Shown here piece after piece: positions 4,893 to 58,230 of a stretch of 64,000 bases of DNA. Under the pieces are notes generated by a model. It ran no database searches, was not told the origin of the DNA, and was given only the letters and a program-made list of their open reading frames with translations. Within the stretch, counting starts at the first letter, position 1; the number at the start of each line of letters is the position of its first letter. A program made the position numbers and the translations under genes. Source of the DNA: Chiloscyllium plagiosum (Eukaryota); NCBI RefSeq assembly GCF_004010195.1, contig NC_057744.1:29253055-29317054 (forward strand), written 5' to 3'.

Positions 4893-5048
4893 TTGTACAT
4901 CTGCACATCTTGTGTAATTTGTCCATGCAATTTAAGCATCCTACCAAGGAATCATTCTGATATATCTGCATTGCACTCTTTCCAAGGCCAATATAATTTC
5001 TGAAAGTTATCTGGCCTGGAAATGCTCACACAGTGGTGTGATCTAACC

Positions 5049-5082
5049 TGATGAAGAGCATGTGCCCGAAACATCGATTCCC
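5049..5082 (+). mobile_element. 34-bp hammerhead-core-only insertion in an old CR1 fragment
   Basis: CTGATGA(5048-5054) AGAGCATGTGCCC GAAAC ATCGATTC; flanked by GTGATCTAACC (5038-5048) and GTGGTTTAACC (5083-5093), 9/11 identical. Confidence 0.6.
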
Positions 5083-7654
5083 GTGGTTTAACCATGGCCT
5101 TGTATAGCTGAAGTGTGACTTCTTCCTCTTGTAGATGTGAAGCACCATTTTGTTAGCCTTTTTGTTTGTTTTCTGTACTTGTTCATGACATTTTAATGAT
5201 CTTTGCACACAGACGCTCCATGTTATTGGACTCAACCATTCCTAATATTTTGTTACAATCTACAAAGTACTCTCTACTTTCCTATTTAGGTTCCTACTTT
5301 TACCTACATTTCCAAAATGGTGCCACGTCAACAACATTTATGCCTCTATCTGCACTAATCCCAATGCTGACTACCTTTGTAAACTTGGATATATTTCTGT
5401 AGTTCTCACAATATGGATTTTTCTGCTCTTATTGTTGGTCTGTGTTTCTCAGATTTGAAAACTTTATTTTAAGTGGGAGACCAAGATGGCTGCCTTACTA
5501 GGTTCCTTACTAAAGAAGTTTTAGGACTTGATTGAACTGCCACAACCTGGGCCTTTGTGTGCAGCAACTCACCAACGAGGTCTGAGACAACCAATGTCAT
5601 GGTTTCTGAAAAATGATGCATCCCAGTTAGGAAATCTCTTCTGAATAACCTCAGGACCTAGAGACTTCTTCAGACGAAGACATCCTTTGTCCTTTCAAGA
5701 CCGTGCGGCAGCTTAAATTCACAGTTCCAATCAGATAGCTCTCAGCAGTCACTATCTGTGCAATTTTAGTGTTCATTCTTAAAAAGAGAAGGAAGTTCCA
5801 GAAAATTCCATGTTAATAATGGTTCATGTTTTATAAGTTATGAATATGATAAGATTCCACAACAGATGTTTATGGGACACCACCAGATACCTCCCGCTAA
5901 TTCAACTACCCTCCCATTATCACTTCTTTCTGTCTCCTAACACTCAGCCAATGCCCAGACAAGACACCAATTTGCTATAAGTTTCATGGGTTTCAGCCTT
6001 AAATATCTGTTGCTTTTGGGACATTTTATTGTCTGCCTTTTGGAAGTCCATATAAATAACATCCATTGACATTCTCTTGTCATTCTGAGATGGAAACAAA
6101 CAGTAAAATTGTCAAATGATACATATTGGCACAAATTATCATGTATGTTTCAAAATGGAGGTACAGCACAACAACTGCATTCAAAGTATTACTGTTTTTA
6201 TTTACTGTTTCTTTTCCCTCTGTGAATACATTAGTTATCTCTTCAAAAATTCAATTAGGTTTCGGTCTGACAAATTCATGCTGGCTTCCTCTGCTCTGAA
6301 AATGTTCAAGGTGTTTAGACCCCTATCCTTAATTATAGACTCAATAATAATTTCCTCACAACAGATGTTCAGCTGACTGGTCCATAATTTCCTGGTTTCC
6401 CTCTGTCATCTTTTTTAAATAGTACAGGGATGAATGTGAACGTTAATCTGTGGGAGCTAAAAGCCATGTTTTGTAAGTGCTTATACTCGATGGCAGATAC
6501 TTAATTGTGGGAAGTGCAGCCACTGGAAACCTTTATCATACTTACAGGATATTCTTATGCAATTACCTTGTGTTGCATTTGTGTTTGTTATTAGTTAAAA
6601 TTCCTGGAGCTGTGGAGTCTGTCCCTGAACACATTCCTTGGAGGTGCCTGTATACATTGCCACCATGGCAACAGGAATGCCTTACGTGATCATTTTATAA
6701 CAAAGATTTGTAACCATTTCTTTTACAGACATTGACCTTGAGAATTTATGAAATCTGATTCACCTCACGGTGTTGCATCTAAAATGGCCACTGCTATTTC
6801 AAGATGCGTTCCGATGCCTGAATTTGGAGGAGTGGCTTAGCACATCAGTACATCAATTCACCACACAATATGCAATCTGTTAAGTCCTTGGACTACAATC
6901 ACTGTTATCTTATAGGTATGCATATCAGCCTCTTTAATGTAGTCATGTCCTGCAAAAACGAATCTGTTTTAGGGTGTTTGATTGAGAGGGAAGAGATCAT
7001 AAGAAGACAAATGGGCCATTGAACTGCTTGACTGCTTGAGGCTGTTCTGTGACATTCAGTTAGACCCTGGCTGACCTGTACTTTAACTGAGTTCATCCTC
7101 CTTCATCAATATTCCTTAACAAAACTCTAATAGTCTCAGTTCCGAAAGTCCTATTTGGTCCCCATCCATGGCCTTTTGGGAAAAAGAATTACAGGTTCGG
7201 GTTTCCATGATGTGGAGAACCCTCTGACTTTATTCAGATAAAGTATTGTAAGATCCTCAATATCTACCTGGATCAATGGACAAGACAGGTAAGGCCTCAG
7301 CTGAACATCTCAACCAAAGGACGACATCTCTAACAATGGATTACTCCCTCAGTAATGGGCTCAAGTGTGAACAAATACAATTCCTAGTTTTGAATGTCCC
7401 CTCCTGAAACTTTGAGTGCTCAGGTCATAATGCATACCATAGCCCTGCCTAAGATCAGCCGATCATCCAGGTCTATAGCTCAAGACATAACCAAATGAAC
7501 CTTTGAAGAGCCTGAAAACATAGCAGCCAGTGAACATCTATGTTAAAGGTCTCAATAAACTGAAGGCATTATTGGTACTAATTCAGTAACCAAAATATGC
7601 CATTTAGAAAGGTGAGCTATTGAACTGAGTCAGTAATGCCCCTCTATGTCCATC

Positions 7655-8035
7655 TTGGCTCAGCCTGCTGCAGCCTCTGAATCAAAAGGTCACATGTTAC
7701 AGCCGCACTACAGAACTGAGGCAACACTCCAGTGAAGTATAAAGAAATCTGGAACTGTTGGAGGTGTCACCTGATGAAATATTAAACTGTGGTATCACCT
7801 ACCCTCTCAGGTGAACAGATAAGATCTTATGGTACAACTCAAAGAAGAGAAGTGCCATCCTCCGAGTATCCAATGGAACATTTGTCCTTTATTCTATGCT
7901 GCCAAACAGATTATCTGGCCAAGTCTCTCATTGCTGTTCCACAGGCTTTGTTCTGAGCAAATTGGTCACCACATTACAAAGCTTTTGTTATGTTAAGAGG
8001 TTGTATAAGGTACTAGTGATACAAATTCTTTCTTT
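7655..8035 (+). mobile_element. SacSINE1/DeuSINE-like SINE (old)
   Basis: ACACTCCAGTGAAGTA...CCCTCTCAGGTGAAC...CAGATTATCTGG...CATTGCTGTT...CAAATTCTTTCTTT. Confidence 0.6.
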
Positions 8036-8974
8036 CTCTCTTTCTGTTTGACTAACTCTCTAATTAAGACAATGACAAAAACTTGCACTGATACATTTAA
8101 CACAGTGATGTACTGTGGAACTTTACACAGATGGAAGGTAACCTGGGATTGCCTAATAGCAGAAAATGATTAAGGGAGACGACTGAAGAGAAAATCAAAG
8201 GGGTACAGGCAGAGGGTTTAAAAAATGCAACTCTAAGTATCCCATATGCCTTAAACATCCTGCATCAGTATGTGTAATACTTGAAAAGGAAGGAGCCTTC
8301 CCATTTGGGGGAGGGGCAGGAGAAGGCACAAGAAGTAACTCAAGAGGCAGCCAGATGTGAGAGTGACACTGTTTGCATTGTTTAAGAGCAGGAAGCCTGT
8401 AAGCTTTCTTGGTTAGAATCACAGGAAGGGACTGTGGAGACAGGGATGCTGCACAGGAGGGGAGGGCAGTCTCTTGATGAGTTACTGTGTGCAACTCTGG
8501 GGTCTGGCAGTCACCAGTGACCACCACCTCCTGGCCTGTCACTCACTGCATTCAGATCAGAAAAAAAGAAAGTTTGTTTGCTCAATCTCAAGGGCAGTTT
8601 CTGGCTGTTTGAGAGTTTCAATCTAATTCGAACCGTGGAAATGTTGGACGATCTAAAAAGAAATACTTCTTTTGGATTTGGCATTGATTCAATTTCAGTT
8701 CATTTCAACGTTCAACATTTATAGATACTCAAATGATCTGTCTGAATCATCACCTTCCATTTGTAGCTAAGTGAAACATGTTCTGATGTTTGAACTGCTG
8801 TTTGCTGAAATTGCAGCTTTTGCACTACATTGATTTGCAATCTAGCAGTCAATTCCAAACAGTTTCTCAACTGCTGTGAAGGAGTCAGCCTAGAAAGGAC
8901 ACTCACTATTAATCAAAGTGTCAACCCAGAGTGGCACTACATCTACATTGAATTGAAAGGTGTGGATGAACTCT

Positions 8975-9900
8975 GCTATCTAGACTCAACGGTCTGTTCG
9001 ACATCACTTTCTAAAACACAACCACTTCCACACAGAAGGACAAGGGTAGCAGACAAATGAAAACCTCACAATCTGCAAGTTCCCCTCCAAGCCACTTACC
9101 ATCCTGACTTGGAAATTTATCAGCATTCCTTCAGTGTCTTTGGGTCAAAATCCTGGAATTCCCTCTAAGGGCATTGTGGGTCTACTTCCAGCATATGAAC
9201 TGCAGCGTTTCAGAGTGGCAGCACACCCCCACCATCTCAAGGGAAACTAGTGTTATGGACCAGGGTAGACACTTTCAAAATATTTTAAGCAGGTAACTTT
9301 TCTATTTTCTTTTAGACAGACGTGAAGTGGATATTCCAGGAGTGATGCAACTGGTCAAACCACTAAGCTTTAAACAAAACAGAATTTATTGAAACACTAT
9401 GTATGTAACATGAACAAAGGAAAACAGAATTTAGAATAACAACTTATTTGATAGCCCAATTGACTCTATCGCAACTTAACAACAGAGCTGTACCAATCCC
9501 TGCACATTCCACAAACACACCCCTTGGCAAAAGGTAAATTCAAACGCAGGTTCTTACAGGCAAGAGAGATTTCAGAGAGAAAGTTTAGGCAAGACCTCTG
9601 TTGAAGCATGGAACCTCTTTTCACTGTGGCTGTTTCTCAAGACTCCCAACAGTTTTTGACTGCTTACTAAAAACAGACCAAACTGGAAAAACAACCTGAA
9701 CTTGGAGAACTGGCCACTCCCCTGCCCTTGCTTTCAAGTTGCCATTTCCAGACAAATTGGAACCTCTGCCTTTACCACCCCTCTCGAAAAAAGCCAAAGA
9801 CAACATAACCTTGTTAATGGGGCATCATCATCACACTAGGGGCAGGCAATAAATGCTAGCCAAGCCAGTGATGCCCACATCCCAGGAGTAAATAACAAAA
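8975..9900 (+). mobile_element. 3' end of a CR1-group non-LTR LINE (clade uncertain), split by a solo LTR
   Basis: AGAAGGACAAGGGTAGCAGA...CTCAAGGGAAACTAG | GGGCAGGCAATAAATGCTAGCC...CCCACATCCC; same family in reverse at 51235, 53060 and 57890. Confidence 0.75.
9251..9835 (-). mobile_element. Solo LTR (Gypsy/ERV-type), 585 bp
   Basis: Ends TGTTATG...CATCACA (TG..CA, 6/7 inverted match); 4-bp TSD CTAG at 9247-9250 and 9836-9839; AATAAA on minus strand at 9385-9390; the host LINE rejoins when it is removed. Confidence 0.85.
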
Positions 9901-10029
9901 AAGTGAAATGATCCCAAATAAGACAAGATAAATTTGCATTGGTACAACTGCATCATTTACAAAACTGCAAGCTGGATACTGGAATGACTCAAAACTCTCA
10001 ATAACTATATGACTAAGATTCCAAAAGGT

Positions 10030-10380
10030 CTACATACTACATCCTGTTGTGTGGTGTGGAACCCTTGACTACATATCAGAAGCAGGGATGCAGATTAAGT
10101 TCATTGCATGCATATTTCTTGAGAAAGATCCTTGCGATCCATTGGTAACATAGAGTCCCTAACACAGCATTGCTGAAGCTTTCTCAGTATCATGGCAATG
10201 GTCATATGACCTCAGCTCTGACGGCAAGGCCATGTCATTTGGAATGAATTGTGGTCACTGGCAGAAAGATGCATTTTATGACAAGTTTGATGCTGACGGT
10301 AGATCTGTTGTCTGGACAAAAATAAGACATATGGAATCTGATAGGTAAGGTGTCATTACATGCAAGATTGACTTTAAAAA
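10030..10380 (+). mobile_element. Degraded RTE-clade LINE RT C-terminal fragment
   Basis: Hand translation HAYFLRKILAIHW*HRVPNTALLK ... QL*RQGHVI ... WQKDAFY resembles RTE/BovB LRRILxIxWxDRVPNTEVL / QLRWxGHV. Confidence 0.6.
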
Positions 10381-10857: not shown

Positions 10858-11050
10858 CAGGCCAATATTTATCCTTCAACTAACACCTCAAAAAACATTT
10901 ATCTAGGCATTATCACATTGCTGTTGTGTAAGTTTTCTTCATGTTCCCACCTTCCCAACATTACAGCAGTGATCACTGCACTTAGCTATAAAGAGCTTAG
11001 GGAGGTCCTGGGGTTGTGAAAGTTGCAATGTACGTACGAGTCTTTCATTT
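10858..11050 (+). mobile_element. SacSINE1/DeuSINE-like 3' half
   Basis: GGCCAATATTTATCCTTCAAC...CATTATCACATTGCTGTT...GAGTCTTTC. Confidence 0.65.
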
Positions 11051-12500: not shown

Positions 12501-13181
12501 TATTTACTGTTGGTTCAGAGTGACATGGTGGCTGTAGCCTTGGTGATGATAACCTAATATTGATGGTACATATTCAATTGATCCGTGCCATCATATATCA
12601 CAATCTTTTACTTGTTGAATATGATCTATTACGGGCTGTCCCAATGCCAATTAACTATCATTACATCGAACACTCTGGCATTTTATTTGGTGGCTCTCTG
12701 ATTACAGTATGTATGGTAAGTACTGGTGATAATGAAAATGTTGCTTGCAGGATGTATGGATTTTGTGAGCTGACTAGGAATGTCTAGCAACCACTGAACA
12801 ATCATCTTCAGATGTAACTGTTTCTCTTAATATTTGCCCATCAGTGAAATTGGATTTGACATGATCATTCTTGATTTCATGAGAGTATTCATGAGCAAAT
12901 ATTTGAAAGGATTCAATGATGGATTAAAGGTTTTGTCCAAATCAATACCCTCTCTACACTGACTGGTCTTCAATTCTATCCCTCACCACACGAAATCAAA
13001 GATCCTCACATTTGTATCTCTGGAGTACAAGTAGTTGCCTGGTGGATAGTGGGTCCCTGAGATACACTCCCCTGTGATGGGAGAGGTTTCCGTGGTTTCC
13101 CTGGCCATGACCCATTTGCAGGCTCGTCACCCTGGCAAGGTCTTATGCTGAGATAAAGAAGGCATTGACATGAATATAACT

Positions 13182-13310
13182 CAAGTAAAAGCAACATATT
13201 GCAGATGCTGAAGATCTGAAATAAGAACAGGAATTGCTGGAGAAACTTAGCAGATTTGACAGTATTTGCGGAGAGACAATCTTTCTAATCCTATGTGATG
13301 CTTCTTCAGA
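13182..13310 (-). mobile_element. PLE terminus insertion (family D-like) beginning at CTGAAGA
   Basis: TCTTCAG at 13303-13309 (CTGAAGA on minus); TATAACT duplicated at 13175-13181 and 13312-13318. Confidence 0.65.
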
Positions 13311-13549
13311 TTATAACTGCAGGTTTCGAGAGGATGCCACAGTGTTCTTCCTCACTGTCTTTAGGGTCTTTGAACTGCTGATGTAAACACCAGCCATGGG
13401 TGGAGGTGGAGGTGGGTAAAAAAATCCACTCAAAGTACATTAACAAAAAAAACTATAATTTCTCTCTGCCTCTCTGGATTTTGGATCTTTGCCTAGCACT
13501 AAACCAGTGTCAAGTTTATTTGAGCACCCCTCCACTTTGGCATCCAATA

Positions 13550-15443: not shown

Positions 15444-15678
15444 GTTACATGTTACTGGTTTAGGGTAAATGGCAAGCTAGCTTTTTTGAATGAAGTTGAT
15501 GCTCTGAAATTGGAATGAGGGTCTTGCAGAGTGAAGGATTCTCTGCAGGTTTTGAAATCTCCTGCAGTCAAATTTCTAAGGTGAACTTTACTTGACTCAG
15601 GCTGAATGAGCCCTTTTCTCTGGAATCTCCTACATATAAGGTATTGCTATTAGAGACTTTGCTTGCCTGAATTATTTG

Positions 15679-15814
15679 CCTGAAGAAGGGCTTATGCCCG
15701 AAACGTCGATTCTCCTGTGATTCCTGAAGAAGGGCTTATGCCCGAAACGTCGATTCTCCTGTTCCCTGGATGCTGCCTGACCTGCTGCGCTTTTCCAGCA
15801 ACACATTTTCAGCT
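15679..15814 (+). mobile_element. 136-bp PLE-derived insertion carrying a tandem pair of minimal hammerhead motifs (family A)
   Basis: Identical 40-mers at 15679-15718 and 15723-15762, each CTGAAGA-A-GGGC-TTAT-GCCC-GAAACGTC; perfect 12-bp TSD CTGAATTATTTG at 15667-15678 and 15815-15826. Confidence 0.9.
15680..15756 (+). ncRNA. Predicted dimeric type I minimal hammerhead ribozyme
   Basis: Two intact cores; ACGU palindromes can form a shared stem III; GUC cleavage triplets end at 15707 and 15751. Confidence 0.7.
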
Positions 15815-15889
15815 CTGAATTATTTGGAGACAGTTTGATAGATTTGGCGGATCTTATGTTGATTTCTAAAGAAGCAGTCAGAAAACACA

Positions 15890-20662: not shown

Positions 20663-20985
20663 GGTGGCATAGCCACTCAATGGTTAGCACTGCTCCCTCA
20701 CAGCACCAGAGACCTGGGTTCGATTCCACCCTCAGGCAACTGTCTGCATAGAGTTTCCTCTGGGAGCTCCAGTTTCCTCCCACAGTCCAAAGGTGTGGAG
20801 GTTATGTGGATTTACCACGCTAAATTGCCCACAGTGTCCATGGATGTTATGGATTAGCCATGGGAAATGCAGGATTACATGAATAAAGAGAGGAAGGGGT
20901 CTGGGTGGGATGCTGTTTTGAAGGTCAGTGTGGACTTGATGGGCTGAATGGCCTGCTTCCACAATGTAGGGATTCTATGATTCTA
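20663..20985 (+). mobile_element. HE1 SINE
   Basis: TGGTTAGCACTGC...GGGTTCGATTCC B-box; GATTCTATGATTCTA tail. Confidence 0.92.
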
Positions 20986-21398: not shown

Positions 21399-21628
21399 AG
21401 TGACAAAAACCCGAACGAACTGCAGATGCTGTAAATCAGAAAGAAGAACAGAAGTTGCTGGAAAAGCTCAGTAGGTCTGGCAGCATCTGTGCAGAGAAAT
21501 CAAAGTCAACATTTTGAGTCCTGTGATCCTTCCCCAGTTCTAAGGAAGGGTTGCTAGTCCCAAAACGCTAACTTTGATTTCTCTTCAGAGATGCTACCTG
21601 CTGGGTTTTTCCAGCAATGTCTGTTTTT
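21399..21628. mobile_element. PLE fold-back insertion (family D) with two decayed hammerheads
   Basis: Inverted arms centred near 21538; 8-bp TSD ATCTCTTC at 21391-21398 and 21629-21636. Confidence 0.8.
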
Positions 21629-22354
21629 ATCTCTTCCTTGACTCCAGGTTGCCACAAATGCGATACCATACCTGGAACTGCACAGCTTAAAACTACCCAC
21701 TCCTGTGATTCTATCAGCAACATCTCCATGTGTCTGTGAAGTTTACTGTCCTCCCATCCCCCAGCACTTTCTTGTGTAAAGGGAACGGCTCTCAGCTGTT
21801 AAAGTTGAAATCAGATGAAATGATGCCTGTGACAGTCGAATATCATGACATATTTCTTAAGAGTGACAAGTAGCCAGGGGTCAGCTGGTAAATATCTGAT
21901 TAATACTGAGGAGCCAAGGAAATATATCAGAGGGGAGTGGAGATAGAAACAAATTAATTGGACATCATTGTGATCCTTCTTCATTCACTCTCAATGTTTT
22001 TGATCATTCTGAATACGTTAAAGATAATTACCCCTCACTGCATACCATTTTCCAGATGAATATTTAGATTTCATGCTCGGCAGCAAATATCTCCATAATT
22101 TGTTCCAATCATAATAGAGTGAAAGCTCCCACACACTCAGTTCCATCTGTGTAATTCCTCCACACACATTTATTCAACAGTAATCACACTAATCTATCTC
22201 AATTTATTCAGGACAAAGAGTCAGACACTAACAGGATTTTACATTACCAATACAAAGCATTTATCAATAAAAATGGCCTTTTAAGACAATTTTCCTATAA
22301 ACAAGCTTACTGTAATCCTGCATGGATGTCATTAATGATTTGTACTGCAGAAGT

Positions 22355-23939: not shown

Positions 23940-24822
23940 ACGGATTTCAATGTCAGAAAATAGGTCGGATATCCTCTTACTGCTCTATTCCTCCCTGACT
24001 CCCTTCCTAGCTCCTCCCCCTCTCTGCCATTGCTCCCTTCTACCAACTGGTTCATTCCTCCCGGGTCATACCCTCTACCTGTCTTCACCCATCTCCACTT
24101 CACCACCCTGCCCCCACCACCCCCTTTATCTGCAGCTCCTCCCCACACCCTCCCCCAGTCCTGAAGAAGGGTCACACCCAAAATGTCGACTTCTCCACCT
24201 CCTGTTTCAGCTGCATTGAGAATACTGTGTACAGTTCTGGTCGCCGCATTACCAAAAGGATGTGGACGCTTTGGAGAGGGTGCAAAGAAGGTTTACGAGG
24301 ATGTTGCCTGGTATGGAAGGTGCTAGTTATGAAGAGAGGTTGAGTAGGTTAGGTTTATTTTCATTAGAATAAAGGAAATTGAGGGGGGACCTGATTGAGG
24401 TTTATAAACCCATGAAGGGTATAGGCAGGGTGGATAGAGACAAGCCATTTTCCCAGGGTGAAGGATTCAATAATGAGAAGTCACACATTCAAGATGAGAG
24501 GTGGAAAGTTTAAGGGGGATACATGCGGCAAGTACTTCACACAGTGGGTGGTGGGCGTTTGGAACACATTGCCAGCGGGGGTGATAAAGGCAGGTACGGT
24601 AGATTCATTTAAGATGCGTCTGGATAAATGCATGAGTAGGTGGGATGCAGAGGGATACAGATGCTTAGGAATTGACCAACAGGTTTAGGCAGTAGATTTG
24701 GATCGACTCAGGCTTGGAAGGCTGAAGGGCCTGTTCCTGGGCTGTAAATTTTCTTTGTTCTTTTCTTTTTACTTTGATGCCGCCTGGCTTGCTGTGTTCT
24801 TCCAGCCTCCTACCTGTCTACT
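23940..24822 (+). mobile_element. PLE 3' terminus (family C) interrupted by CR1
   Basis: C-rich UTR, CTGAAGA 24161-24167 AGGGTCACACCC AAAATGTCGAC; resumes ATGCCGCCTGGCTTGCTG at about 24777. Confidence 0.8.
24205..24775 (+). mobile_element. CR1/HER1 LINE 3' fragment
   Basis: [26 protein letters not shown] and KYFTQWVVGVWNTLP motifs; TTCTTTG tail. Confidence 0.93.
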
Positions 24823-25056
24823 GTATTCCATAATTTTCTATAATTTTATATATAACTGCCACAAGAAAGAACCAAAGCCAATAAGAGTGGCCATTGATTG
24901 TCTCTGATCTGACGTTACTGTAAGAAAGACTAGATGTGATTCCCTCCTTGGTGAGACAATGCTCTCCACCTACTTTTCTTCTACCAGGAGCACAAGAAAA
25001 TCAACCCTTCAGCTTTCTGTTCAAATGTAAAAGTATTCAAGTCTTGTATTTATATA

Positions 25057-25267
25057 CCAAGAGAGCAAAAATTGCTTGAGAAACTCAGCAGATCTGGCAG
25101 CATCTGTGGAGTAGAAACAGAGTTAACATTCTGAAGAAGGGTCATTGGACTCAAAACATTAGCTCTGTTTTTTTTTCTCTACAGTTGCTGCCAGGTCTGC
25201 TGAGTTTCTCCAGCAATTTCTGGTTCTGTTTGTTTCAGATCTCCAGCACCTAATATTCTTGTTGTAA
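25057..25267. mobile_element. PLE fold-back insertion (family D)
   Basis: Right arm starts at CTGAAGA 25131-25137; TCTTGTATTT duplicated at 25042-25051 and 25268-25277. Confidence 0.8.
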
Positions 25268-25482: not shown

Positions 25483-26410
25483 GAGTCCTACAGCATGAAA
25501 ACAGACCTTCTCTCCAACCAGGCCATGCCAACCATGTTCCCAAACTAACCTAATCCACTTGGCTGCAATTGGCCCATATCCCTCCAAACATTCTTACCCC
25601 ATGTCCTTACCCCATCCTCACATAGTAAACTTTGTTATTCACACGGTCTGCTATTACACAAAAACCATTGCTCGCCACTAATAATCCCCATTAATAGCTG
25701 TACACCCTCTTTGCCAGATTGTTATCCTTTCCTTTGCCCAACTGTTCTTCTCTCTCTTTGGGCTCTATCCTAATCATTTACCCCTTTCTCCCTCGCTCCA
25801 CCCTATCTTCTGCTTATAAACCCACATTTTCCTCGCTACCATCAGTTCTGAGGAAGGGTAACTGGACCCAAAACATTAACTCTGATTTTTCTTGACAGAT
25901 GGTGCCAGACATGCTGAGCTTTTATCGCAATTTCTGTTTTGCTTCCTTATTCATTAATGTATCCAAATGTATTTTAAATGTTGTAACTGTACCTGCATCC
26001 ATCACTTTGTCTGGCAACTCATTCCACACGCAAACTAGTCTCTGTGTAAAAGGATTGCCCTTCATATGCTTTTTAAATATTTCTCCTCTCATCTTGAATA
26101 TATGCCCCTTGTTTTGAACTACCCCACCCAGTGAAAAAGATCCTTGTAATTCACTTTATCTATGTCCTCATGAATTTGTATACCTCAGTAAGGTCACCCC
26201 TCAAGCTCTTAATTGCCAATGAAAAAAGGCCCAGTTTTTCCAGTCTATTTTTATATCTCAAACCCTCCGTTCCTGGTAACACCCTAATAAATCTTTTTGA
26301 ACTCTCCAGTTTAGTAATAACTGGGTGACCAGTATTGCACACAATACTCCAGAAGAGGCCTCACCAATGTCCTCAACATGACACCCCAACTCCTATATTC
26401 AAAGGTCTGG
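25483..26410 (-). mobile_element. CR1/HER1 3' fragment interrupted by a PLE terminus
   Basis: ORF KRFIRVLPGTEGLRYKNRLEKLGLFSL..RGDLTEVYK; tail at 25483-25595. Confidence 0.9.
25597..25942 (+). mobile_element. PLE 3' UTR plus terminus (family D)
   Basis: CTGAGGA 25848-25854 AGGGTAACTGGACCC AAAACATTAACTCTG. Confidence 0.75.
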
Positions 26411-26860
26411 ACTGCTTTTCTGGAATGTCCTTATTTGAGCCAGTTATCACGAGTTCTGGATCTTTGATTGCCATGACCCTGCCCCATGGTTTTGTCCTTC
26501 AATGTTAACTCATGTGCATAAAACACCTATGTATACCCATTGCATTGTCCTCGCTCTCATCAGATTTCACAAACATGGTAGCAGTACCACTGTCAAAGGT
26601 TTGTGGTCACCATTCCCACATTTGTACCAACCACCAGCCCGATCCCTACCCCACAGGTTCAGTTGCCACTCCCCCAGTACAGTTCCTCAGACCATTCAGT
26701 TTTTATCTCAGGGAGTTGGGTTTTGGCTCATCAGGTCGTGCAACATCTTTGAAGTGAGAAATGGAAATTAAGTTGATATTGATGGCCTTTCATCAGGATC
26801 AGACAACGTCAGAGATGTTTTGCGTTTTAAGCAAATGGACAACCACAGAAAGGGGAGAGA

Positions 26861-27171
26861 TAGGCGGCTCAGTGGTTAGCACTGATGCCTCACAGCACCA
26901 GGGTCCCAGGTTCGATTCCAGCCTCGAACCTGTCTGTGTGGAGTTTGCACATTCTCCCCGTGTCTGCATGGGTTTCCTCCGGGTGCTCCAGTTTCCTCCC
27001 ACAGTCCAAAGATGTGCAGGTCAGGTGGATTGGCCATGTTAAATTGCCTGTAGTGTTAGGTGTACTAGTCAGAGGGAAATGGGTCTGGATGGGTTACTCT
27101 TCAGAGGTCAGTGAGGACTAGTTGGGCCGAAGAGCCTGTTTCCATACTGTAGGGAATCTAATCTAATCTAA
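26861..27171 (+). mobile_element. HE1 SINE
   Basis: GGCTCAGTGGTTAG A-box, GGTTCGATTCC B-box, (AATCT)n tail. Confidence 0.95.
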
Positions 27172-31912: not shown

Positions 31913-32230
31913 AGAATCACAAAATTATGGAATTATTACAGTGCTGAATGAGGCCATTAGGCCTCTCGTGCCTGCACCAGCTCACTGAAGATGTTACCTA
32001 CTATGGTGATGAAACGTCTAAAAATGAACCTTCCAGCTCAGTGAGCAAACCTACATCCTGAACCTCAACCTGAGCTACAAATCTTCTCAAAACTCTGCAC
32101 CAGCTCTGTTATCTAGAGCCAATCTCCTGCCATTTCCGGATATCCCTGCACAGCCTTATTATCTAAATAACCATCCGACGTCCTCTTGAATGCTTCAGTC
32201 CCTGCCTCCACCAGATTACCAGGCAAACGT
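31913..32230 (-). mobile_element. Old CR1 3' end hosting a PLE micro-insertion
   Basis: AGAATCACA..GAGGCCATT..CCTCTTGAATGC..CCAGGC. Confidence 0.7.
31984..32094 (+). mobile_element. 111-bp PLE-derived insertion (family E) starting at a hammerhead core
   Basis: CTGAAGA(31985-31991) T GTTACC TACTAT GGTGAT GAAACGTC(32011-32018); perfect 12-bp TSD CTGCACCAGCTC at 31972-31983 and 32095-32106. Confidence 0.88.
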
Positions 32231-34507: not shown

Positions 34508-34766
34508 TAAAAACAATGACTGCAGATGCTGGAAACCAGATTCTGGATTAGTGGTGCTGGAAGAGCACAGCAGTTCAGGCAGCATCCAAGGAGCAGTGAA
34601 ATCGACGTTTCGGGCAAAAGCCCTTCATCAGGAATAAAGGCAGTGAGCCTGAAGCGTGGAGAGATAAGCTAGAGGCGGGTGGGGGTTGGGAGAAAGTAGC
34701 ATAGATTACAATGGGTGAGTGGGGTAGGGGATGAAGGTGATAGGTCAGGGAGGAGAGGGTGGAGTG
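34508..34766 (-). mobile_element. PLE 3' terminus (family A variant) running into the gap
   Basis: AAAACAATGACTGCAGATGCTGG...; G-rich (+) UTR; intact hammerhead motif. Confidence 0.85.
34600..34635 (-). ncRNA. Intact minimal hammerhead motif
   Basis: Minus strand ATTC CTGATGA A GGGC TTTT GCCC GAAACGTC GATT. Confidence 0.7.
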
Positions 34767-35219
34767 NNNNNNNNNNNNNNNNNNNNNNNNNNNNNNNNNN
34801 NNNNNNNNNNNNNNNNNNNNNNNNNNNNNNNNNNNNNNNNNNNNNNNNNNNNNNNNNNNNNNNNNNNNNNNNNNNNNNNNNNNNNNNNNNNNNNNNNNNN
34901 NNNNNNNNNNNNNNNNNNNNNNNNNNNNNNNNNNNNNNNNNNNNNNNNNNNNNNNNNNNNNNNNNNNNNNNNNNNNNNNNNNNNNNNNNNNNNNNNNNNN
35001 NNNNNNNNNNNNNNNNNNNNNNNNNNNNNNNNNNNNNNNNNNNNNNNNNNNNNNNNNNNNNNNNNNNNNNNNNNNNNNNNNNNNNNNNNNNNNNNNNNNN
35101 NNNNNNNNNNNNNNNNNNNNNNNNNNNNNNNNNNNNNNNNNNNNNNNNNNNNNNNNNNNNNNNNNNNNNNNNNNNNNNNNNNNNNNNNNNNNNNNNNNNN
35201 NNNNNNNNNNNNNNNNNNN
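34767..35219. other. Assembly gap (453 N)
   Basis: Run of n. Confidence 1.
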
Positions 35220-38641: not shown

Positions 38642-39151
38642 GTTCCTGGTTTTGTGTCTGCACTAAACAGTATGGCACTACGGAAGTAAAATGAGCCTGG
38701 TGATTCTGGTTGAGTGTGCGAAGTACACAAAGACAAGGCAAGGTAGGGGTTCTGTAATTATCCAGGAAATCCCAGGATGAATGATCCCTATGATAGTGAG
38801 TAGAGAGCCTAGAAATGCAATCAGGTCCAGTCCATGAGCTGGGTACACGTCCCTGAGCACACAGTGTACTGGCAGCAGCAATTCTATGTCAGGTGCAGCT
38901 TTGAAGTGCAGAAGCATACTGAAGTGAATCAGAGATGTGCCGTGAGGCTTCTTTGAGGCTGGCACATGTCAGATGTCAAAGGCAATAGATGGTGGATATG
39001 TACAGTCAATGGGCATGTAGTATGCCCTGAGATATTGATGTCCAGAGTCCAACATGTTTTGTTGTAAATTAGTGCTGTAATGGTGTTACATTATTGAAAA
39101 CAGCAATGCTATTACTATACATTGAGTTCTAATAGTCTTGTAGTCAAGAGT

Positions 39152-39422
39152 GAGGCACAGTGGCTCAGTGGTTTGCACCGCTGCCTCACAGCACCGGGGA
39201 CCCGGATTTGATTCCAGCCTCGGGCAATAGTGTGGAATTTCCACTTTCTCCCCGTGTCTGTGTGGCTTTCCATCCACATTCCAAAGATGCGCAGGTTAGG
39301 TGGATTGGCTATGCTAAATTGCCCCATAGTCTTCTGAGATGTGCAGGCTAGGTGGGTTAACTATGGCAAAGTGCGGGGTTACGGGGATAGGATTAGTACA
39401 AACTCGAAAGGCTGAATGGCCT
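39152..39422 (+). mobile_element. HE1 SINE
   Basis: GGCACAGTGGCTCAGTGG head; GGTTAGGTGGATTGGCTATGCTAAATTGCCC core. Confidence 0.92.
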
Positions 39423-42660: not shown

Positions 42661-43705
42661 GATTTGGAGATGCCAGTGTTAGACTGGGGTATACAAAGTT
42701 AAAAATCACACAACACCAGGTTATAGTCCAATTTATAGTCCAACAGGTTTATCTGAAAGCACGAGCTTTTGGAGCACTGTTCCTTCATCAAGTGGTTGTG
42801 GAGTATAAGATTGTAAGACACACAGAATTTATAGCAAAAGTTTTCAGTGTGATGCAACTGAGATGATATATTGGAAAAGACCTAGATTGTTTGTTAAGTG
42901 TCTCATCTTTTAGAATGACCATGTTGGTTTCAGTTCTTTCATATGTGAATCCCAGAACTTTATTTTGAAGTTACATTCTCAAGCAAACTTTAACAATAGG
43001 TGCCATGTCAGTTCAGACAATGCATTGAAGGTGTGAGATTAATGTCTGTCTGTCTGTGTCCAGACAGATTGTCAAACTGATTCTATTCCTTTAAAATAAG
43101 GGGATTTACAGAATCTTACATGGATTCATGCAGTTTTTGAGCAAAATAAAATGTAATTCTGCAATTACAAACTCACCTCACCAACTTATATTTGTGTTTG
43201 TGCATGTGGGTGTGTGGGGGAGGGTGTTGAGTGTCTGTGAGAGTGTGTGTGTTTGTGTATGTGTGTGAGTGTAAAGGGGTATAAGTCTGTGAGAGGGTGT
43301 ATGTGTGAGTGTGGGAGTGTATGAGAAAGAGCTTGTGTATGAGAGAGGATCTACATGTTTCGTGTGTGTGTGTGTGCATGTGCGTGCGTGTATGTGTGTG
43401 TCAGTGTGTGCGTAGTGCAGTGAGGTCACCTGTAGTATGACATTAACTCAAGGTCCCAGCTGGGTATCGAACTTGGCTATCAGCCTCTGCTCAGCCACTT
43501 TGCGTTGTTGCCTGTCCCGAAGTCTGCCTTGGAGGATAGTCACCCAAAGGTCCAGGTCGAATATCCTGGACAACTGAAGTGTTCCCTGACTGGGAGGGAA
43601 CACGCCTTATACTTCACAACCACCTGATGAAGGAACAGTGCTCCAAATGCTAGTGCTTCCAAATAACTCTGTTAGACTATAACCTGCTGTTGTGTGATTT
43701 TTAAC
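42661..43705 (-). mobile_element. Penelope-like element 3' portion (family B) with an inverted terminal copy
   Basis: Minus strand 43606-43460 encodes SLPVREHFSCPGYS/DLWVTILQGRLRDRQQRKVAEQRLIAKFDT (C-terminal half of a GIY-YIG endonuclease); CA-rich UTR; terminal repeat 42661-42810 inverted at 43607-43705; decayed hammerheads near 42765-42791 (-) and 43624-43652 (+). Confidence 0.88.
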
Positions 43706-43859: not shown

Positions 43860-44636
43860 GTATTGAATTTATTGTCATGTGCACCGAGGCACAGTAAAAT
43901 GCTTTGTCTTGCGAGCAATACAGGCAGATCACATAGTTAAGTAGCATAGATAGTAAATAATAGGTAAACAGTGGCAAAAACAAAAACACAGATACAGGTG
44001 AACTTTAAGAGTTTGTGAGTCCATTTAGTATTCTAACAACAGTAGGGTAGAAACTGTTTCGAAACTGCCTGGTGCTTGTGTCCAGGCTTCTGTACCTTCT
44101 CCCCGATGGTAGAGGTTGTAGAAAAACATTGCCAGGGTGGGATGGATCTTTGAGAATGCTTGCGGCCTTTCCTTGACAACGGGCCTGGTAGATGGATTCC
44201 ATAGATGGGAGGTTGGCCTTTGTGATTGTCGTTGAAAAGTCTGGTGCTGGAAAAGCACAGCAGGCCAGGCAGCATCCGAGGAGCAGGAGAATCGACGTTT
44301 CAGGCATAAGCCCTTCTCCTGAAGAAGGGCTTATGCCCAAAGCGTCGATTCTCCTGCTCCTCAGATGCTGCCTGGCCTGCTGCGCTTTTCCAGCACCACA
44401 CTTTTCAACTCTGGTCTCCAGCATCTGCAGTCCTCACTTTCTCCTTTGTGATTGTCCAGGCCGAGTTCACCACTCTCTGTGACTGTCTCCGATCTTAAAT
44501 GGTACAGCTGCCATACCAGACAGAATGCCCTCGATGGCGCACCTATAAAAATGGCAAGGGTATTTGCCGTCATGCCAAATTTCCTCAGCTGCCTAAGGAA
44601 GAAGAGACGTTGTTGGGCCTTTGTAACCAGTGCGTC
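43860..44636 (-). mobile_element. Rex1/Babar-type LINE 3' fragment
   Basis: KAQQRLFFLRQLRKFG and ILKDPSHPG..LPSGRRYRS..FRNSFYP..RILN motifs; CACATT TSD at 43854-43859 and 44637-44642. Confidence 0.88.
44231..44442. mobile_element. PLE fold-back insertion (family A) inside Rex1
   Basis: About 87-bp inverted arms meeting at CTGAAGA 44319-44325; perfect 14-bp TSD CCTTTGTGATTGTC at 44217-44230 and 44443-44456. Confidence 0.92.
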
Positions 44637-48951: not shown

Positions 48952-49267
48952 TGGTGGCCTGGTGGCTCAGTGGTTAGCACTGTTGCCTCACAGTGCCTGG
49001 AACCAAGGTTCAATTCTGGTCTTGGGTGACTGTCTGTGTGGAATTTGAATGTTCACCCTGTATCTGTGTGAGTTTCCTGGCACAATCCAAAGATGTGCAA
49101 ATTAGATGGATTGGTCATGCTGAATTTCCCATAGTGCCCAGGGATGTGTGGGTTAGATGAATCAGCCATGGATAAAGCAGGTATATGGGGCAGGTTTGGG
49201 TAGGATTCTCGTCAGTATGGATGTAATGGGTTGAATTGCCTGCTTCTGCACTGTAGGGATTCTATGA
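48952..49267 (+). mobile_element. HE1 SINE
   Basis: GGTGGCTCAGTGGTTAGCACTG head, GGGATTCTATGA tail. Confidence 0.92.
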
Positions 49268-52590: not shown

Positions 52591-53059
52591 TGCCTCAAGG
52601 TGTAATGGAAACCACTTGACTGGTTGAAGTGCGGATCCAACAACACTCAAGAAGTTTGACAAAAGAAAAGCATTTGCATCAGGAGTGACTGATTGTGTTT
52701 TGCTTCTCTGCCATTTTGTCTCAACCATATTTGTTCAATTTCAACCCACAAGTGTTCAGAATTGGGCTGTCAACTTAAAGTAATTGATCACCCTTATTGA
52801 AGGAAATACGGACTTTTTGAGCCCACATTACATTTTTTACACTATTTCTGCTGCTGTATTCATTACTGACTTTATTTTCTTCGATTCGCATGCCAAGGCA
52901 CATCTTTTCTCATTCCCTATCGTCAAAGAGCTACTTCTACTGAATCCCGAGCCGGCATTTCCACGCCACTCTCTTTACACTTCCCTCTGCGATCCCATTT
53001 TTATTCCTATTCATTCTTGAGATTCTCCGAGAACATATGAGAGTGTTATTGGCAAGTTC

Positions 53060-53560
53060 AGGATTTATTTCCCTGCCCTCACTACCCCGGAGAAGGTGAC
53101 GATGAGCCGCTGCAGTCCATGTGGCATAGGTATAGCCATGGTGCTATTAGAGAGGGAGTTCCAGGAGTTTGTCCCAGTGACAGTGAAGGAATGGAGGTAT
53201 GGCTCCAATTCATCATAGTGTATGGCTCATTGGGAATTAGGGAAGGGACCTTGTTGGTGATGGTCTTCCCAGCATGGATGATGCCCTTACACTGACAATG
53301 GAAGTAGTGAGGGCATGGATTTGGAAAATGCTATTGAAGGAACCTTGCCAATATGCTGCAATGCATCTTCCCAGTGTAGCCAATAATGAAGGGAGTGAAT
53401 GTTGAAGGGGTGGATGTGATGCTGATCCAGGGGGCTGCTTTGTCCTGGATGGTGCCAAGCTTCTTGACAGTATTCTATCACAGTCCTAACTTGTGCCTTG
53501 TAGATGATGAACGCACTCCGGGGTTTCAGTTACTCACTATGGAAATTCTAACTTCTGATT
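53060..53560 (-). mobile_element. CR1-group LINE 3' fragment
   Basis: Parallel to 52143-52590 (GAGAAGGTGACG..GCTGCAGTCC..GCTTTGTCCTGGATGGTG). Confidence 0.75.
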
Positions 53561-55881
53561 GTGCTCATTGGGCAGGTTTTCAAAACCAATGTGATGATGA
53601 GTGGAGAAATGGGGGTATGTCAGTGCCAGTCCAAAGCATGAGCATGGAAAATGAATGGTCAAATGCTTTGGATGGGTTGGAGTTAATGTATAGAGGAGCC
53701 TGACAGAACACTGGAAAACCTCAGACTGGAGCCACAATTACATATTTTTCCCATACTACCTCAGAAGTGCTGAGGCCATTTACTGCACCAGTTGGCCCTC
53801 TAATCATGCGAGTGAATCCAGACCAGGGAATGAACCTTGCACTTCTAAAACAGCATTTATCAACTGAACCATGGGGATAGTGTTCAATGTTGAAGTGAAG
53901 ACTTGACAGATTCCTGAGGAATTCTGATGCAAAAACATGAGTCAGTATCATCCCTTGAGTAAGCAAGGATCACGGTATCTCCCAATTTGATGAAGAAAAA
54001 ACCCTGTAAAGTAAGAAAACAAGATCGAATGCAGAGACTAAAAGTACTTTGACCCTCGAAACAGTGTCTCAATGGAGTGTTTAACATTGGTACAATTGAG
54101 ATTCAATTGCAAAGTAAATGATTCAACATGCTCAGCTACAGATGATGCTGATGGTCAATTTGTTTCTCCGAGACTGGGAGAAATTCAAATCCAACTTTAA
54201 CGAGACTCAGGCAAAATGCTTCTTGACAATGTAATGGAACATTTATCAAGATTCAGCTGGAGTGTAACTTGATCAGCTAAAGATTACCGTGTTTGGCATG
54301 GTATGCCACAATGATGTCATGAAAACCACAATGTAAAACAAAACCCTCAATGTTGAATAATAGCTTGTGTTGAGTATGTGACAAGCCTGTCACATTCCCA
54401 CTGACTTACAGCATGCCCCAATGCAATGATACTCTCATTACCTTAATGGAACCATCTCAGGGAATGCTTACCAAGATCATATCTATGGGCTCCCCTAGGG
54501 CTTCAGTGGTACAATGTATTACCTGATGCATACAGACCAGGAAGCTCTCAAGACTTGAGTACTGGTCTGTGTTAAGTAATCTCATTTGGAATAGGTATGG
54601 GGGTGGGGGGATGATGTAACGTTCTGAAAGCATTACTAGGGGAAGCAGGAGAGATTGGGGAAAGATGAAGGAACAAGCACTTTGTAGCACTTTATTACTT
54701 CAGTGAGCACCGTGTTCAAAATATTTTCTCTCATGTTATGCAATATGATCAAATAAATTCCAGCCGGCTCTCCTTGATTTCTGATCCCAAGTGCCTGTGA
54801 TAACGATAGGAAAGGGATTACTAATAATGGTGGGAATGACATTTCCCATTCAAAAAGCTTCTTGTTATATGAAAGGAAATGTCAGAGCTCTTTTCTAGAT
54901 GAAGGTGAGATGTCAGCAAGGGTTTGGGAATACTGGGAATGATCAAAGTCATGGGAGATGAGACAGGTTGTTGGGGAATGTGTGATGGCAGGTAAGAGAG
55001 AGGAGGCAAGAGGAAATGTTTTGGGTCAAGAATCTGAAGAATGTGGACTCAGATATCCAGGGGTTCAATCAATCAGGTTCGCATTCACATGCATAAACAT
55101 TCACTTACTCTCTCAATCTCACACATTCACACTCAGTCATCTACTTGCAGGCTGTGCACACTTAAAGTTATATTTATTTTTCTAAATTGCATAGATACTA
55201 TGCATCTATCATTATCGTTAGCTTCCAATGGCAGAAGCTTCTTGGATCCATGGAGGTTACTTTGAATGTGGCACCATGAGTGAACTTGGAGAAAAGGGCA
55301 TCAGGTCAGCAGCACTAGACATTCTCAAATTCCTACCAGAGAGGGGAGAACATTGACTGTAATGGTCAGCCAATACTGAATCAGTAGGGCATTAATGAAG
55401 GGGGCAGGGAGGACTCCACTGGGATCTTCTTGGCATCAAAACAGCTTCCACTGAATACCAGCGTTGGTAGTTCCTTGCTGAGTTGTGCAGGACTCTCAAA
55501 AGGACCAGACAGCCTTCATATTCCAGCTCTTGTTTCACATGTCCTTCCAAACATTTGTAAAGAAATGACATTAACCCAGTGCCATCCTGGGCTCAGGACC
55601 TCTGCCAAAAACAGTTTTCAGCCAGTGAAGTGTGTTTGAAGAGGTTATGCAGAAACTTAGCCAGCTTGAGGACACAAAGATTCCACAATCAGCAATATAG
55701 TAATGACCAGAGAATCCTTCATGACTTTAGTTGAAGGATTACCGTTAACCAGGCAGAATTTCATTAGTCTTCTTCAAAATTATGTCATGGAAACTTTTAA
55801 ATCCATCTGAGAGGCATAAACGACCCATTTAATGTCACATCTAGAAGATGGTACCTCTAAAATTATGGCACTTCCTTAGTA

Positions 55882-56245
55882 CTCAGTGGTTAGCACTGCT
55901 GCCTCACAGCACCAAGGACATGGGGTTTGATTCAGCTTTGGATGACTGACTGTGTGGAGTTTGTACATTCTCCCTGTGTCTGCCTCGGTTTCCTTTAGGT
56001 GCTCTGGTTTCCTCCCACAGTCCAAAGATGTGCAGTGTTAGGTGGATTGGTTGTGCTGAAATTGTCGGCATTGTTCAGGGATGTGTAGGTACTCAGGGAC
56101 ATGTAGGCTAGGTGGATTAGCCATGGGAAATGAGGGGTTATGGGGATATGGTAGGGGACTGGGTCTGAGTGGAATGCTCTTTGAAGGGTTAGTGTGGATT
56201 TGATGGGCTGAATTGCCTCCTTCCACACTGTAGGAATTCTGTGAT
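55882..56245 (+). mobile_element. HE1 SINE abutting a reversed Deu-type SINE (55610-55882)
   Basis: CTCAGTGGTTAGCACTGCTGCCTCACAG..; TTCCACACTGTAGGAATTCT tail. Confidence 0.9.
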
Positions 56246-56552
56246 TTACAGCATCAACGTTGACATTGTGTGCAGTCTTTTGATTCATCTATTCTTTAAG
56301 CTTACAATAAATTTGCAGCTGAAAAGTGAGAGAAATATGAAGGATTACAATAAATTACAACAATCTTTCCTCTCACTCACCCACCAAATTATGTGAGGAA
56401 GGTCACGGAACCCCAAAATGTTTCCATTTAAACGGACAATATTCTATATCAAAGGCAAGAATCACAACCAGTAAATCACGGGCTGAGGCATCTGGTGAAA
56501 GCAATACGCACTTAACAAATACAAAAGTAACATTAAAATGATGTAAGCAGAT

Positions 56553-57240
56553 AACTTGCATTTATATAGCACCTTTAATAAAGTAGAATAGTCCAAAGTG
56601 TTCACAGGAACATTATCAGTCAAAATTAACGGCAAATCATATATGGAGACATGAACAGAAACTGCTGGAAAAGCTCAGCAGGTCTGGTAGCATCTGTGGA
56701 AAGAAATCCAAGTTAACGTTTTGGGTCAGGTGACCTTTCCTCAGAAAGGTGCTGAGGAAGGATCACTTGATCCAAAATGTTAACTCTGATTTCTCTCCAC
56801 AGATGCTGCCAGACCTGCTGAGCTTTTCCAGCACTTTCTGTTTTGTTTCTGATTTCCAGCATCCACAGTTCTTTCAGATTTTATTTACAGAGACTTTAAG
56901 ATTGGTGGCCAAAGAGGAAGGTTTAAACAGCATCCTAAAGTGGGAGATTGAGGTAGAGAGGCAGAGAGATTGAAGAAAAGAATTCCAGAGCTTATGGTCC
57001 ATGCAACTAAAGGTATGACTGCCAATGGGGAAGTGAACAAAGTTAGGGCTTTGGCAGAGACAGGAATTGTAGGAGATCGGAATGGATTGTGCTACTTAAT
57101 GAGGACACAGAGATGAGAGGCATAGAAGGATTTGAAAACAAAGATGGGAATTTTAAAATTGATCTGTTGCTGGATGCAAAGTGAATACAGACAAGCTATA
57201 CAGGAGTGGTGGGCAGATGTGACTTATTTGCAAGCACATA
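56553..57240 (-). mobile_element. L2-type LINE 3' fragment
   Basis: AACTTGCATTTATATAGCACCTTT tail shared with Deu-type SINEs; GAATTCCAGAGCTTA..GGATTTGAAAACAA body. Confidence 0.65.
56652..56885. mobile_element. PLE fold-back insertion (family D)
   Basis: About 90-bp inverted arms; divergent CTGAGGA boxes at 56744-56738 (-) and 56752-56758 (+). Confidence 0.88.
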
Positions 57241-57983
57241 TTTGCTCTTATGCACACACAGAATAATTGCCGGCAAAATGTACCGGTGATAATTGCTGGG
57301 TGTGTAATGAATTTAATAACACACAGGCACTTTACAAACCTTCCATTTGATTAAGTGTTCCTCACATCAGAGGGGTTTCGGTGGCTCTTGTGTATGTTGT
57401 CGTGCACCAATCTATAAAAGGTACTGCCTTTAGATTGCAGAATGAGCAAATAATGCCCATCTGGCTAAAAGCCAGGAATATCTGCCCATTTTATCGAATA
57501 AATAGTTTCCTTTTATTTCTGATGGCTTTTTTTTGTTCTGCTTATAAAAAAGATGCATCTGTCAGTGTCAGTGCTGCCTTCTGTGCTGACTGATCTGCTA
57601 TTCTGTGAGAAGACGACTAATTCCTATGGGTTTTTCCGCCAAATAAAGCTGCAGCCAGTTCTGCAGACAGGCTCATTAAACTCAAAAGGGTTTTTTTTTG
57701 TTTTATATACATAGATTAAAGTAAAACAGAAAACGCTCATGGTGAGAAAGAACAGGTCAATCCCTAGAGAATAACTTCTGATTTGAAAGGACTTCTTGTT
57801 TGTAATTTTTATTGGAGAGAAACAACCTACATCTATATAGCACCCAGTTATCACAGCTCTTGGAAAGTGGCCAGAAGGGCTGATTTTATCATTCCTTCAT
57901 AGAATGTGGGTATTGCTTCCTAGGGCAGCAATTGTTGCCCATTCCTAATACTCCTTAAGACGGTGGCAGCGATCTGCCTTCTT

Positions 57984-58230
57984 TAAAAAGCCTAGCTTTT
58001 GAGTGCTGCTCCTTCACCAGGGACAGCACCTGATGAAGGAGCAGTGCTCTGAAAGCTAGTGCTTCCAAATAAACCTTGGATTATAACTGCTGTTGTGTGA
58101 TTTTTAACTTTGTCCGCCCAGGTCCAACACTGGCTCCTCCACTTCTTGAAGAAGGGTCACACCTGAAACGTTGACTTCTCCACCTCCTGATGCTGCCTGG
58201 CTTGCTGTGTTCTTCCAGCCTCCTGCTTGT
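57984..58230. mobile_element. Chimeric PLE insertion (family B inverted + family B + family C) with three hammerhead motifs
   Basis: TSD CCTTCTT at 57977-57983 and 58231-58237; motifs at 58020-57992 (-), 58030-58058 (+) and 58146-58172 (+). Confidence 0.8.
58025..58063 (+). ncRNA. Minimal hammerhead motif with complete stem I
   Basis: AGCAC CTGATGA A GGAGC AGT GCTCT GAAAGCTA GTGCT: 5-bp stem I, 5-bp stem II (G.U closing pair), AGCT palindrome, CUA triplet. Confidence 0.72.

Follow-up and report, generated by a model that had tools for sequence, protein, structure and literature searches.

The 64,000-nt stretch of the Chiloscyllium plagiosum genome analysed here (RefSeq assembly GCF_004010195.1, contig NC_057744.1, positions 29,253,055 to 29,317,054 of the forward strand; hereafter the window, numbered from its first letter) is rich in the ends of Penelope-like elements (PLEs) with predicted minimal hammerhead ribozymes. 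We refer to the families as A (with a variant, A2), B, C, D and E, and number each copy from the C of the ribozyme core CTGANGA, which is position 0; the NUH triplet of family A then lies at +25 to +27. Exact matches to the 3′ motifs are abundant across the 3.56-Gb genome (53,421 for A, 4,101 for B, 32,790 for D and 1,891 for E). By inspection, the core, helix II and GAAA-N-N-U-H of the predicted hammerhead are present in all families on the sense strand of the pseudo-long terminal repeat (pLTR). A search with Rfam gave no hammerhead match, the only matches being of hairpin type and under the gathering scores.

Upstream of long copies we found broken open reading frames (ORFs) that end in a GIY-YIG domain, with a Pfam GIY-YIG match above cut-off upstream of a family A copy. 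Reverse transcriptase (RT) motifs were found upstream of A2 and E copies, again in ORFs that are all broken. Translations upstream of A/A2, B and D copies contain CxxC motifs that resemble the zinc-finger-like linker between RT and endonuclease, a feature of the Neptune clade (PMC8557442), by which families A, B and D would be Neptune-type. The linker was not seen in the translations upstream of family E copies. We take family E to be Poseidon-type, a label that presumes a general resemblance. GIY-YIG and RT sequences, minimal hammerhead, optional tail of 30–40 nt, inverted and tandem pLTRs and target-site duplications (TSDs) together mark the elements, as far as sequence goes, as endonuclease-containing (EN+) PLEs. 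Such elements, with their hammerheads, tails and inverted pLTRs, are already known (PMC4209133, PMC8557442, PMC3846280, PMC2377424, bioRxiv 10.64898/2026.07.22.740005); the element is of a known kind, and what is new is a testable mechanistic signature.

A first-pass annotation of the window had reported that insertion boundaries and fold-back points cluster at the core's 5′ edge in five families, and had named four TSD-defined inserts that begin within about 1–2 nt of it. Two of these are firm (Table 1). The family A insert at 15679 is flanked by a 12-nt TSD, CTGAATTATTTG, and starts at −1; its inner tandem unit begins at −4 and is preceded by an extra G. The insert at 31984 has an 11-nt TSD (31972–31982 / 32095–32105) and a start that microhomology leaves between −2 and −5. 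The minus-strand copy at 13309 is old and decayed, and since its flanks share only an exact 7-nt repeat its TSD is plausible but weak. For the ~35-nt fragment at 5049 (core from 5048) a TSD was not confirmed: near the junction there was no flanking repeat of at least 8 nt, the best being 7 nt long and 21 nt off. The family C segment of the chimera does start at its core (58146), at −2. Palindrome centres were confirmed at 44317–44323 (87-nt arms), 56744–56752 (91-nt arms) and 58021–58029, but as a rule the core is reached by a single arm. One arm begins at −2 in the palindrome at 25131, whose other arm stops near +24, and at −4 in that at 21538. The boundary at 58023 is not at the core; the D copy starts there at −7/−8, after a G.

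Because a search by CTGANGA over-sees boundaries at that motif, copies beyond the window were collected by sequence 3′ of +38 only. Of 590 matches, 557 passed a coverage filter; 207 were added from later loci, and 748 were kept. Later-locus copies that had been picked by their 5′ patterns were dropped, and junctions beside Ns or locus ends were removed. Palindrome arms were counted separately, and the events are not fully independent. Assembly gaps lie directly upstream of long copies (window 34767–35219; fetched loci L060, L065, L067 and L068), so that long and full-length copies are under-counted.

The resulting breakpoints are sharply clustered. In family A, 108 of 187 at-risk copies end at −6 to −1, where 8.1 are expected from the flanking hazard; the hazard per nt is 0.096 in this interval and 0.0045–0.005 at −59 to −12. 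The modes are −4 (36 copies) and −3 (30 copies), merely 3 copies end at −20 to −12, and 65 of 325 extend past −12. Family B behaves similarly, with 35 of 51 at-risk copies ending at −6 to −1 (6.1 expected) and a peak at −3/−2; its breakpoints at +18 to +43 include misassigned old A-like copies and were not interpreted. Family D has 17 of 51 at-risk copies ending at −11 to −7 (2.1 expected) and 29 of 80 at −6 to −1 (4.0 expected). In family E the excess is small (6 of 98 at −6 to −1, with 1.5 expected) and 80 of 120 copies extend past −60, while family C, with 11 copies, is too small to judge. Families A, B and D thus show clustering far above chance, whereas in E it is weak. Five families was an overstatement, as was a distance of 1–2 nt, for the peak lies at −4 in A and the sharpest one at −8 in D.

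Ends at the cleavage site are rare, accounting for 8 of 325 family A breakpoints (+27 to +29). This agrees with the first-pass view that the templates were uncleaved at the motif, as does the dominance of uncleaved RNA in vitro (PMC11167929). Retrozyme-like units, which run from cleavage site to cleavage site in tandem arrays, do not fit these few ends or the few tandem junctions (9 in 352 A cores and none in 96 D cores). In the short A tandem junctions (window 15679–15720; L248, L270, L275, L283, L284), the upstream unit ends at +28 to +39 in 7 of 9, just past the cleavage site; an RNA may have its 3′ end there, or jumps may favour the position.

Long copies carry a TATA-like box upstream of the boundary. 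The box is TTTATCT at −35 to −37 in 35 of 42 long A copies, TATAAAT at −38/−40 in 8 of 12 long D copies, TATAAAT at −47/−48 in 17 of 35 long E copies, and a variable TATA-like run near −33 in family B. Some 30 nt past the box there is a pyrimidine-A initiator-like motif: TCATTC in A and TCAGTT in B (the A at −4 in both) and CCACAA in D (−8). Transcription typically starts about 30 nt downstream of a TATA box, and box and initiator together predict that D copies end at −8 and that every boundary bears a copied cap. The sharp boundary follows the box (the two lie at −35 and −4 in A, and at −38 and −8 in D) and not the core or helix I, with the junction at the initiator in both families.

Genome-wide, the non-consensus base before the A at −4 of family A is G in 2,086 cases, A in 742 and T in 558 (3,386 in total, G at −6 excluded), where the expected share of G is 26.5% from flanking DNA and 37% from an inverted arm. 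For family D at −8 there were 2,531 matches, with G preceding in 88 of the first 100 listed; the controls gave 315 matches with G in 12 of 100 listed (A at +12) and 142 matches with G in 33 of 100 listed (D at −2), all three counts being made by eye. After a rough correction for pattern length, D starts at −2 are ~4-fold fewer than those at −8 (27/79). In four A inserts and one D insert the G is not part of the TSD, the extra bases of the A inserts being G, G, GG and CTG. The 5′ junctions thus have the excess of untemplated G of a cap-terminated retrocopy.

We consider it likely that the boundary marks where the mRNA made from the element itself has its capped 5′ end, and that the short inserts are run-off cDNAs from internal priming. 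A Pol II promoter in the 3′ untranslated region of the upstream copy would start a capped mRNA 4–8 nt before the core. The PLE protein would prime internally, ~90 or ~125 nt into the uncleaved RNA, and the RT would copy to the RNA's end and run off the cap, leaving the extra G. The cDNA end would then be joined to the target or to the other cDNA, or would jump to another RNA. The hammerhead would be neither cut nor needed for the stop, and would sit at the boundary only by virtue of coming first in the transcript. That a transcript starts here was one of two options in the first-pass annotation, and it fits the G excess, the TATA-like box ~30 nt upstream and the initiator-like A.

A processed 5′ end would place the boundary similarly. 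A 5′-3′ exonuclease might trim a longer RNA to the folded hammerhead or a bound protein, leaving an uncapped end, with the RT adding an untemplated C at run-off. The boundary in A, B and C (−4) is indeed the 5′ edge of the 4-bp helix I, many D breakpoints fall at −6 to −1, and extra A or T bases show that RT or repair can add untemplated bases. However, the G-marked site of D at −8 is five bases beyond helix I and 30 nt behind TATAAAT, and D starts at −2 are both rarer and poorer in G, which makes trimming an unlikely explanation. Boundary and G could also be inherited, if short non-autonomous masters beginning G-ATTCC or G-ACAA had spread. Such a founder effect would suit the very high copy numbers of A and D, and retrozymes have been described as non-autonomous PLE derivatives (bioRxiv 10.64898/2026.07.22.740005). 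Yet copies differ in the base that precedes the G and in everything that flanks it further out, palindrome centres vary from copy to copy, and the same pattern occurs at the initiator position in two unrelated families whose short copies have no upstream box; we regard inheritance as very improbable. Least probable in our view is that the GIY-YIG endonuclease, as intermediates are resolved, cuts the newly made cDNA always at one position close to the core. The anole enzyme prefers ATT (PMC11167929), which A has at −4, and for the tail, resolution by an endonuclease has been suggested (PMC8557442), but the B, C and D boundaries lack ATT and cutting yields no extra G.

Two further candidates were rejected and a third was set aside. 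CAG at −3 in B and C, together with the D. virilis intron, suggested that the core might be a 3′ splice site, but A and D have no AG there and the inserts share no upstream exon. Cleavage at an upstream NUH (CUC at −7 to −5 in A) fails on inspection, as formation of helices I and III is impossible and D lacks the triplet. For a Pol III promoter, B-box resemblance was found in A and C only, and T runs occur within the unit.

The 3′ ends bear on how the short copies were primed. They are bimodal in every family, with modes ~35 nt apart (in A, +85 to +95 and +123 to +126), and the two classes match the tail of the anole element and the two sites at which its RT starts in vitro (PMC11167929). Palindromes that pair one long with one short end make up 53 of 65 unbiased A pairs (~32% expected if independent) and 18 of 26 D pairs. 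A palindrome made by fold-back of the first strand requires the tailed arm always to reach further 5′. The tailed arm is in fact the further one in 19 of 48 untied A pairs (the tail-less arm in 29) and in 9 of 16 D pairs (the tail-less arm in 7); with the tail-less arm as often the further one, the palindromes are not first-strand fold-backs. Junctions show an overlap of 1–3 nt in 24 of 53 A pairs, and at L228 and L314/315 both arms end at the start site, each with its own G. We infer that each palindrome arose from two coupled primings, with a different cut strand and a different start site for each. In L1 twin priming the second DNA strand primes its own cDNA and an inversion results; unlike in L1 inversions, both arms here copy the same segment. 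Arm-to-arm differences are 73/2,582 in A, against 5.4% in random pairs, and 168/1,749 in D, against 10.5%, an identity compatible both with a single RNA copied twice and with two RNAs from the same subfamily.

These data also bear on the other first-pass option, in which exit from the folded ribozyme makes the RT stall or switch template, the cDNA folds back, and the motif has a structural role in integration. A and B do peak at the motif's 5′ edge, E has its small near-core excess, palindrome L228 contains palindromic filler, and self-priming has been proposed for the palindromic junctions of rotifer PLEs (PMC3846280). Of the six near-core E ends, however, two are one palindrome and two belong to a subfamily absent from the reference panel. 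An RT moving 3′ to 5′ would at −4 already be past both unwound helices, stalling gives no reason for a G, and hammerhead mutants left insertion size unchanged in vitro (PMC11167929). The G-marked boundary differs between families, moving with the TATA-like box and not with the core or helix I, and the palindromes are not fold-backs of the kind required. We therefore consider both the stall and the structural role highly unlikely.

Cross-family junctions (D-C, D-A, E-D and B-D; window 58141–58146, L084:5062, L302, L133:1435), which include Poseidon-type joined with Neptune-type sequence, hint at cross-mobilisation or jumps between RNAs; nested insertions are the alternative.

Several observations weigh against a capped mRNA end as the boundary. 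In the local sample D breakpoints at −6 to −1 (29) outnumber those at −11 to −7 (17), and trimming or minor starts must be invoked. The A box TTTATCT is a non-canonical TATA, and the B box is variable with its peak at −3/−2 rather than −4. Family E has a clear TATAAAT at −47/−48, yet 3 of 120 breakpoints fall at −16/−15 and there is no peak at −17. Among 24 TSD-flanked A inserts at −4, a set that includes loci chosen for A or T before the junction, the G is within the TSD in 5 and extra in 4, and the extra base is A in 5 and T in 1; a cDNA ending in C that anneals to a partner's G would place the G both outside and inside the TSD. The filler of L228 fits fold-back, which may operate in some cases. 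A full-length pLTR-ORF-pLTR copy joining hammerhead to ORF start was not found in the fetched sample, and the hammerhead-at-ORF-start layout is therefore borrowed from the anole element. Nor is that layout universal, since in D. virilis Penelope the promoter is internal and transcription starts (nt 371) well upstream of the hammerhead, ahead of an intron whose end marks it (PMC2377424, PMC4209133). Finally, RNA reads on A and D copies list no place where many molecules begin. Read depth on the A copy rises at −4, with 48 loose ends there, but 95% of the reads continue into unlike flanks, and we rejected this rise as a start site because it reflects short genomic copies within host transcripts; run X21 gave 0 reads on the A copy. 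A loose end at 1449 in D is an alignment artefact from a 1-nt deletion in L172.

Family E seldom stops near the start despite its clear box (e.g. L176–L205), implying that the efficiency of priming or of jumping is not the same in Poseidon-type as in Neptune-type elements.

In RNA run X20, perhaps a relative's, 320 and 405 reads on a long D copy end with poly(A) at +57 and +60, respectively. ATTAAA or AATAAA lies near +40 in 137 of 159 D copies and a GT-rich stretch follows the site; a complete poly(A) site in the D pLTR is found at L172:1498–1540, its window equivalent being 58068–58110. With 32,790 copies, D may supply many host genes with poly(A) sites. RNA that ends at +57/+60 stops before both RT start sites. 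In retroviruses, synthesis of minus-strand strong-stop DNA is primed close to the 5′ end of the RNA and proceeds as far as the cap. It is possible, though we hold this only tentatively, that the pLTR acts like a retroviral U3-R-U5 and that every insertion begins as strong-stop cDNA to the cap; the primer here would be nicked target DNA and not a tRNA. The upstream promoter would be U3, R would run in D from the cap at −8 to the poly(A) site at +57 to +60, and the RT start sites would lie in U5, which a polyadenylated mRNA would carry at its 5′ end only. If the element's mRNA ends at +57/+60, priming could occur in the 5′ copy only, and the 34 of 131 D copies that extend past −12 needed a jump; long and full-length copies would need one from the cap end to the RNA 3′ end through R. 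Against this idea, the poly(A) reads may stem from host transcripts, read-through could be frequent, and family A lacks the hexamer. Were it true, tens of thousands of short inserts and palindromes would be failed jumps, and the strong-stop jump would be the missing mechanism that regenerates the pLTR.

The capped-end reading agrees with several described systems and departs from each. In target-primed reverse transcription in vitro by Poseidon PAc of the green anole, both DNA strands are cut and extended and uncleaved RNA is used (Frangieh et al. 2024, PMC11167929). PAc shares with the elements here a hammerhead in the pLTR and two internal RT starts that give the 30–40-nt tail, and its product length is set by the template's 5′ end. 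In contrast to PAc, the strongest families here are Neptune-type and the genomic record shows the RNA end; in the accessible text of that paper we did not find a start site, a cap mark or a genomic map of 5′ breakpoints. As in described PLE hammerheads, we see CUGANGA, helix II, GAAA, a palindromic 15.2–16.2 pair, NUH and a short helix I, mostly in single truncated copies and opposite-strand pairs. For those elements cleavage and circular templates are proposed, whereas the 5′ ends here keep away from the cleavage site and are marked by a cap-like G. At full-length L1 insertions an untemplated 5′ G has been read as a copied cap (PMC9341517, citing Lavie 2004, Gilbert 2005). The extra G at the 5′ junction and the pyrimidine/purine initiator are the same here, but in L1 the G marks rare full-length copies and here the commonest and shortest ones, as priming near the RNA's 5′ end would give. 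Fly and rotifer Penelope also have the promoter in the pLTR and need a partial tandem for transcription (PMC2377424, PMC3846280), and the rotifer pLTR has a TATA and an initiator-like motif and occurs inverted with a tail on one side (PMC3846280). Head-to-head palindromes of the rotifer were explained by self-priming on an antisense template, and the same paper asks whether the template is sense or antisense (PMC3846280); the sense-strand cap-like G here points to sense templates and two primings. According to PMC2377424, no mechanism of pLTR regeneration is obvious. A literature search that left most subscription papers outside turned up no study in which PLE 5′ breakpoints are assigned to a cap or fold-back is weighed against twin priming.

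Other features of the window are independent of these boundaries. Copies of a tRNA-like short interspersed element, which we take to resemble shark HE1, lie at 20663–20982, 26855–27165, 39151–39422, 48953–49267 and 55869–56246. At 60364–60475 family E ends are inverted tail-to-tail, the rarer orientation, and the hairpin gives sub-threshold miRNA-type Rfam scores. A 22-bp tandem array at 63683–64000 extends off the window end.

Table 1. PLE-derived features of the window, in window coordinates
Feature	Position	Strand	Basis
Short decayed family A hammerhead fragment; TSD not confirmed	5047..5081	+	
Old family B copy, start near −2, 7-nt flanking repeat	13175..13318	-	
Left TSD, 12 nt, of family A insert; last base G	15667..15678	+	
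Family A upstream partial unit, core −1 to +38	15679..15718	+	
Extra G (consensus continuation T) before −4 start; likely copied cap	15719..15719	+	
Family A unit, −4 (initiator-like A) through hammerhead to short 3′ end (~+90)	15720..15814	+	
Right TSD of family A insert	15815..15826	+	
Old family B palindrome; right arm from −4	21439..21640	.	
Putative core promoter, long C copy: TTTATCT at −36, CCAGTC initiator-like	24125..24160	+	inferred
Old family B palindrome; right arm from −2, left arm ends near +24	25056..25240	.	
Putative core promoter, long B copy: TATAAA at −33, TCAGTT initiator-like, A at −4	25815..25847	+	inferred
Family E (presumed Poseidon-type) short insert 31983–32094 with 11-nt TSDs; untypical of E	31972..32105	+	
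Putative core promoter, long A2 copy: CTTATCT box, TTATTC at −6 to −1	34632..34668	-	inferred
Putative core promoter, long D copy: TATAAAT, CCACAA initiator-like, A at −8	42792..42833	-	inferred
Family A head-to-head palindrome; 14-nt TSD (44217–44230 / 44443–44456); left arm tail-less, right arm tailed, from −2	44217..44456	.	
Family B palindrome; arms 56654–56744 and 56752–56842	56646..56885	.	
Short inverted D arm, G (58022), then tailed family D copy from −7/−8 (58023)	57991..58141	+	
AATAAA poly(A) signal, family D, downstream of hammerhead	58068..58073	+	
Family C copy from −2, joined behind D tail (cross-family junction)	58144..58240	+	

The short copies are a fossil 5′-end map of these elements with thousands of events. 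They point to a capped, sense, uncleaved RNA as the template, to priming near its 5′ end and to two coupled primings per palindrome. This touches on how the pLTR is rebuilt, how inverted repeats form and what purpose the hammerhead serves in PLEs.

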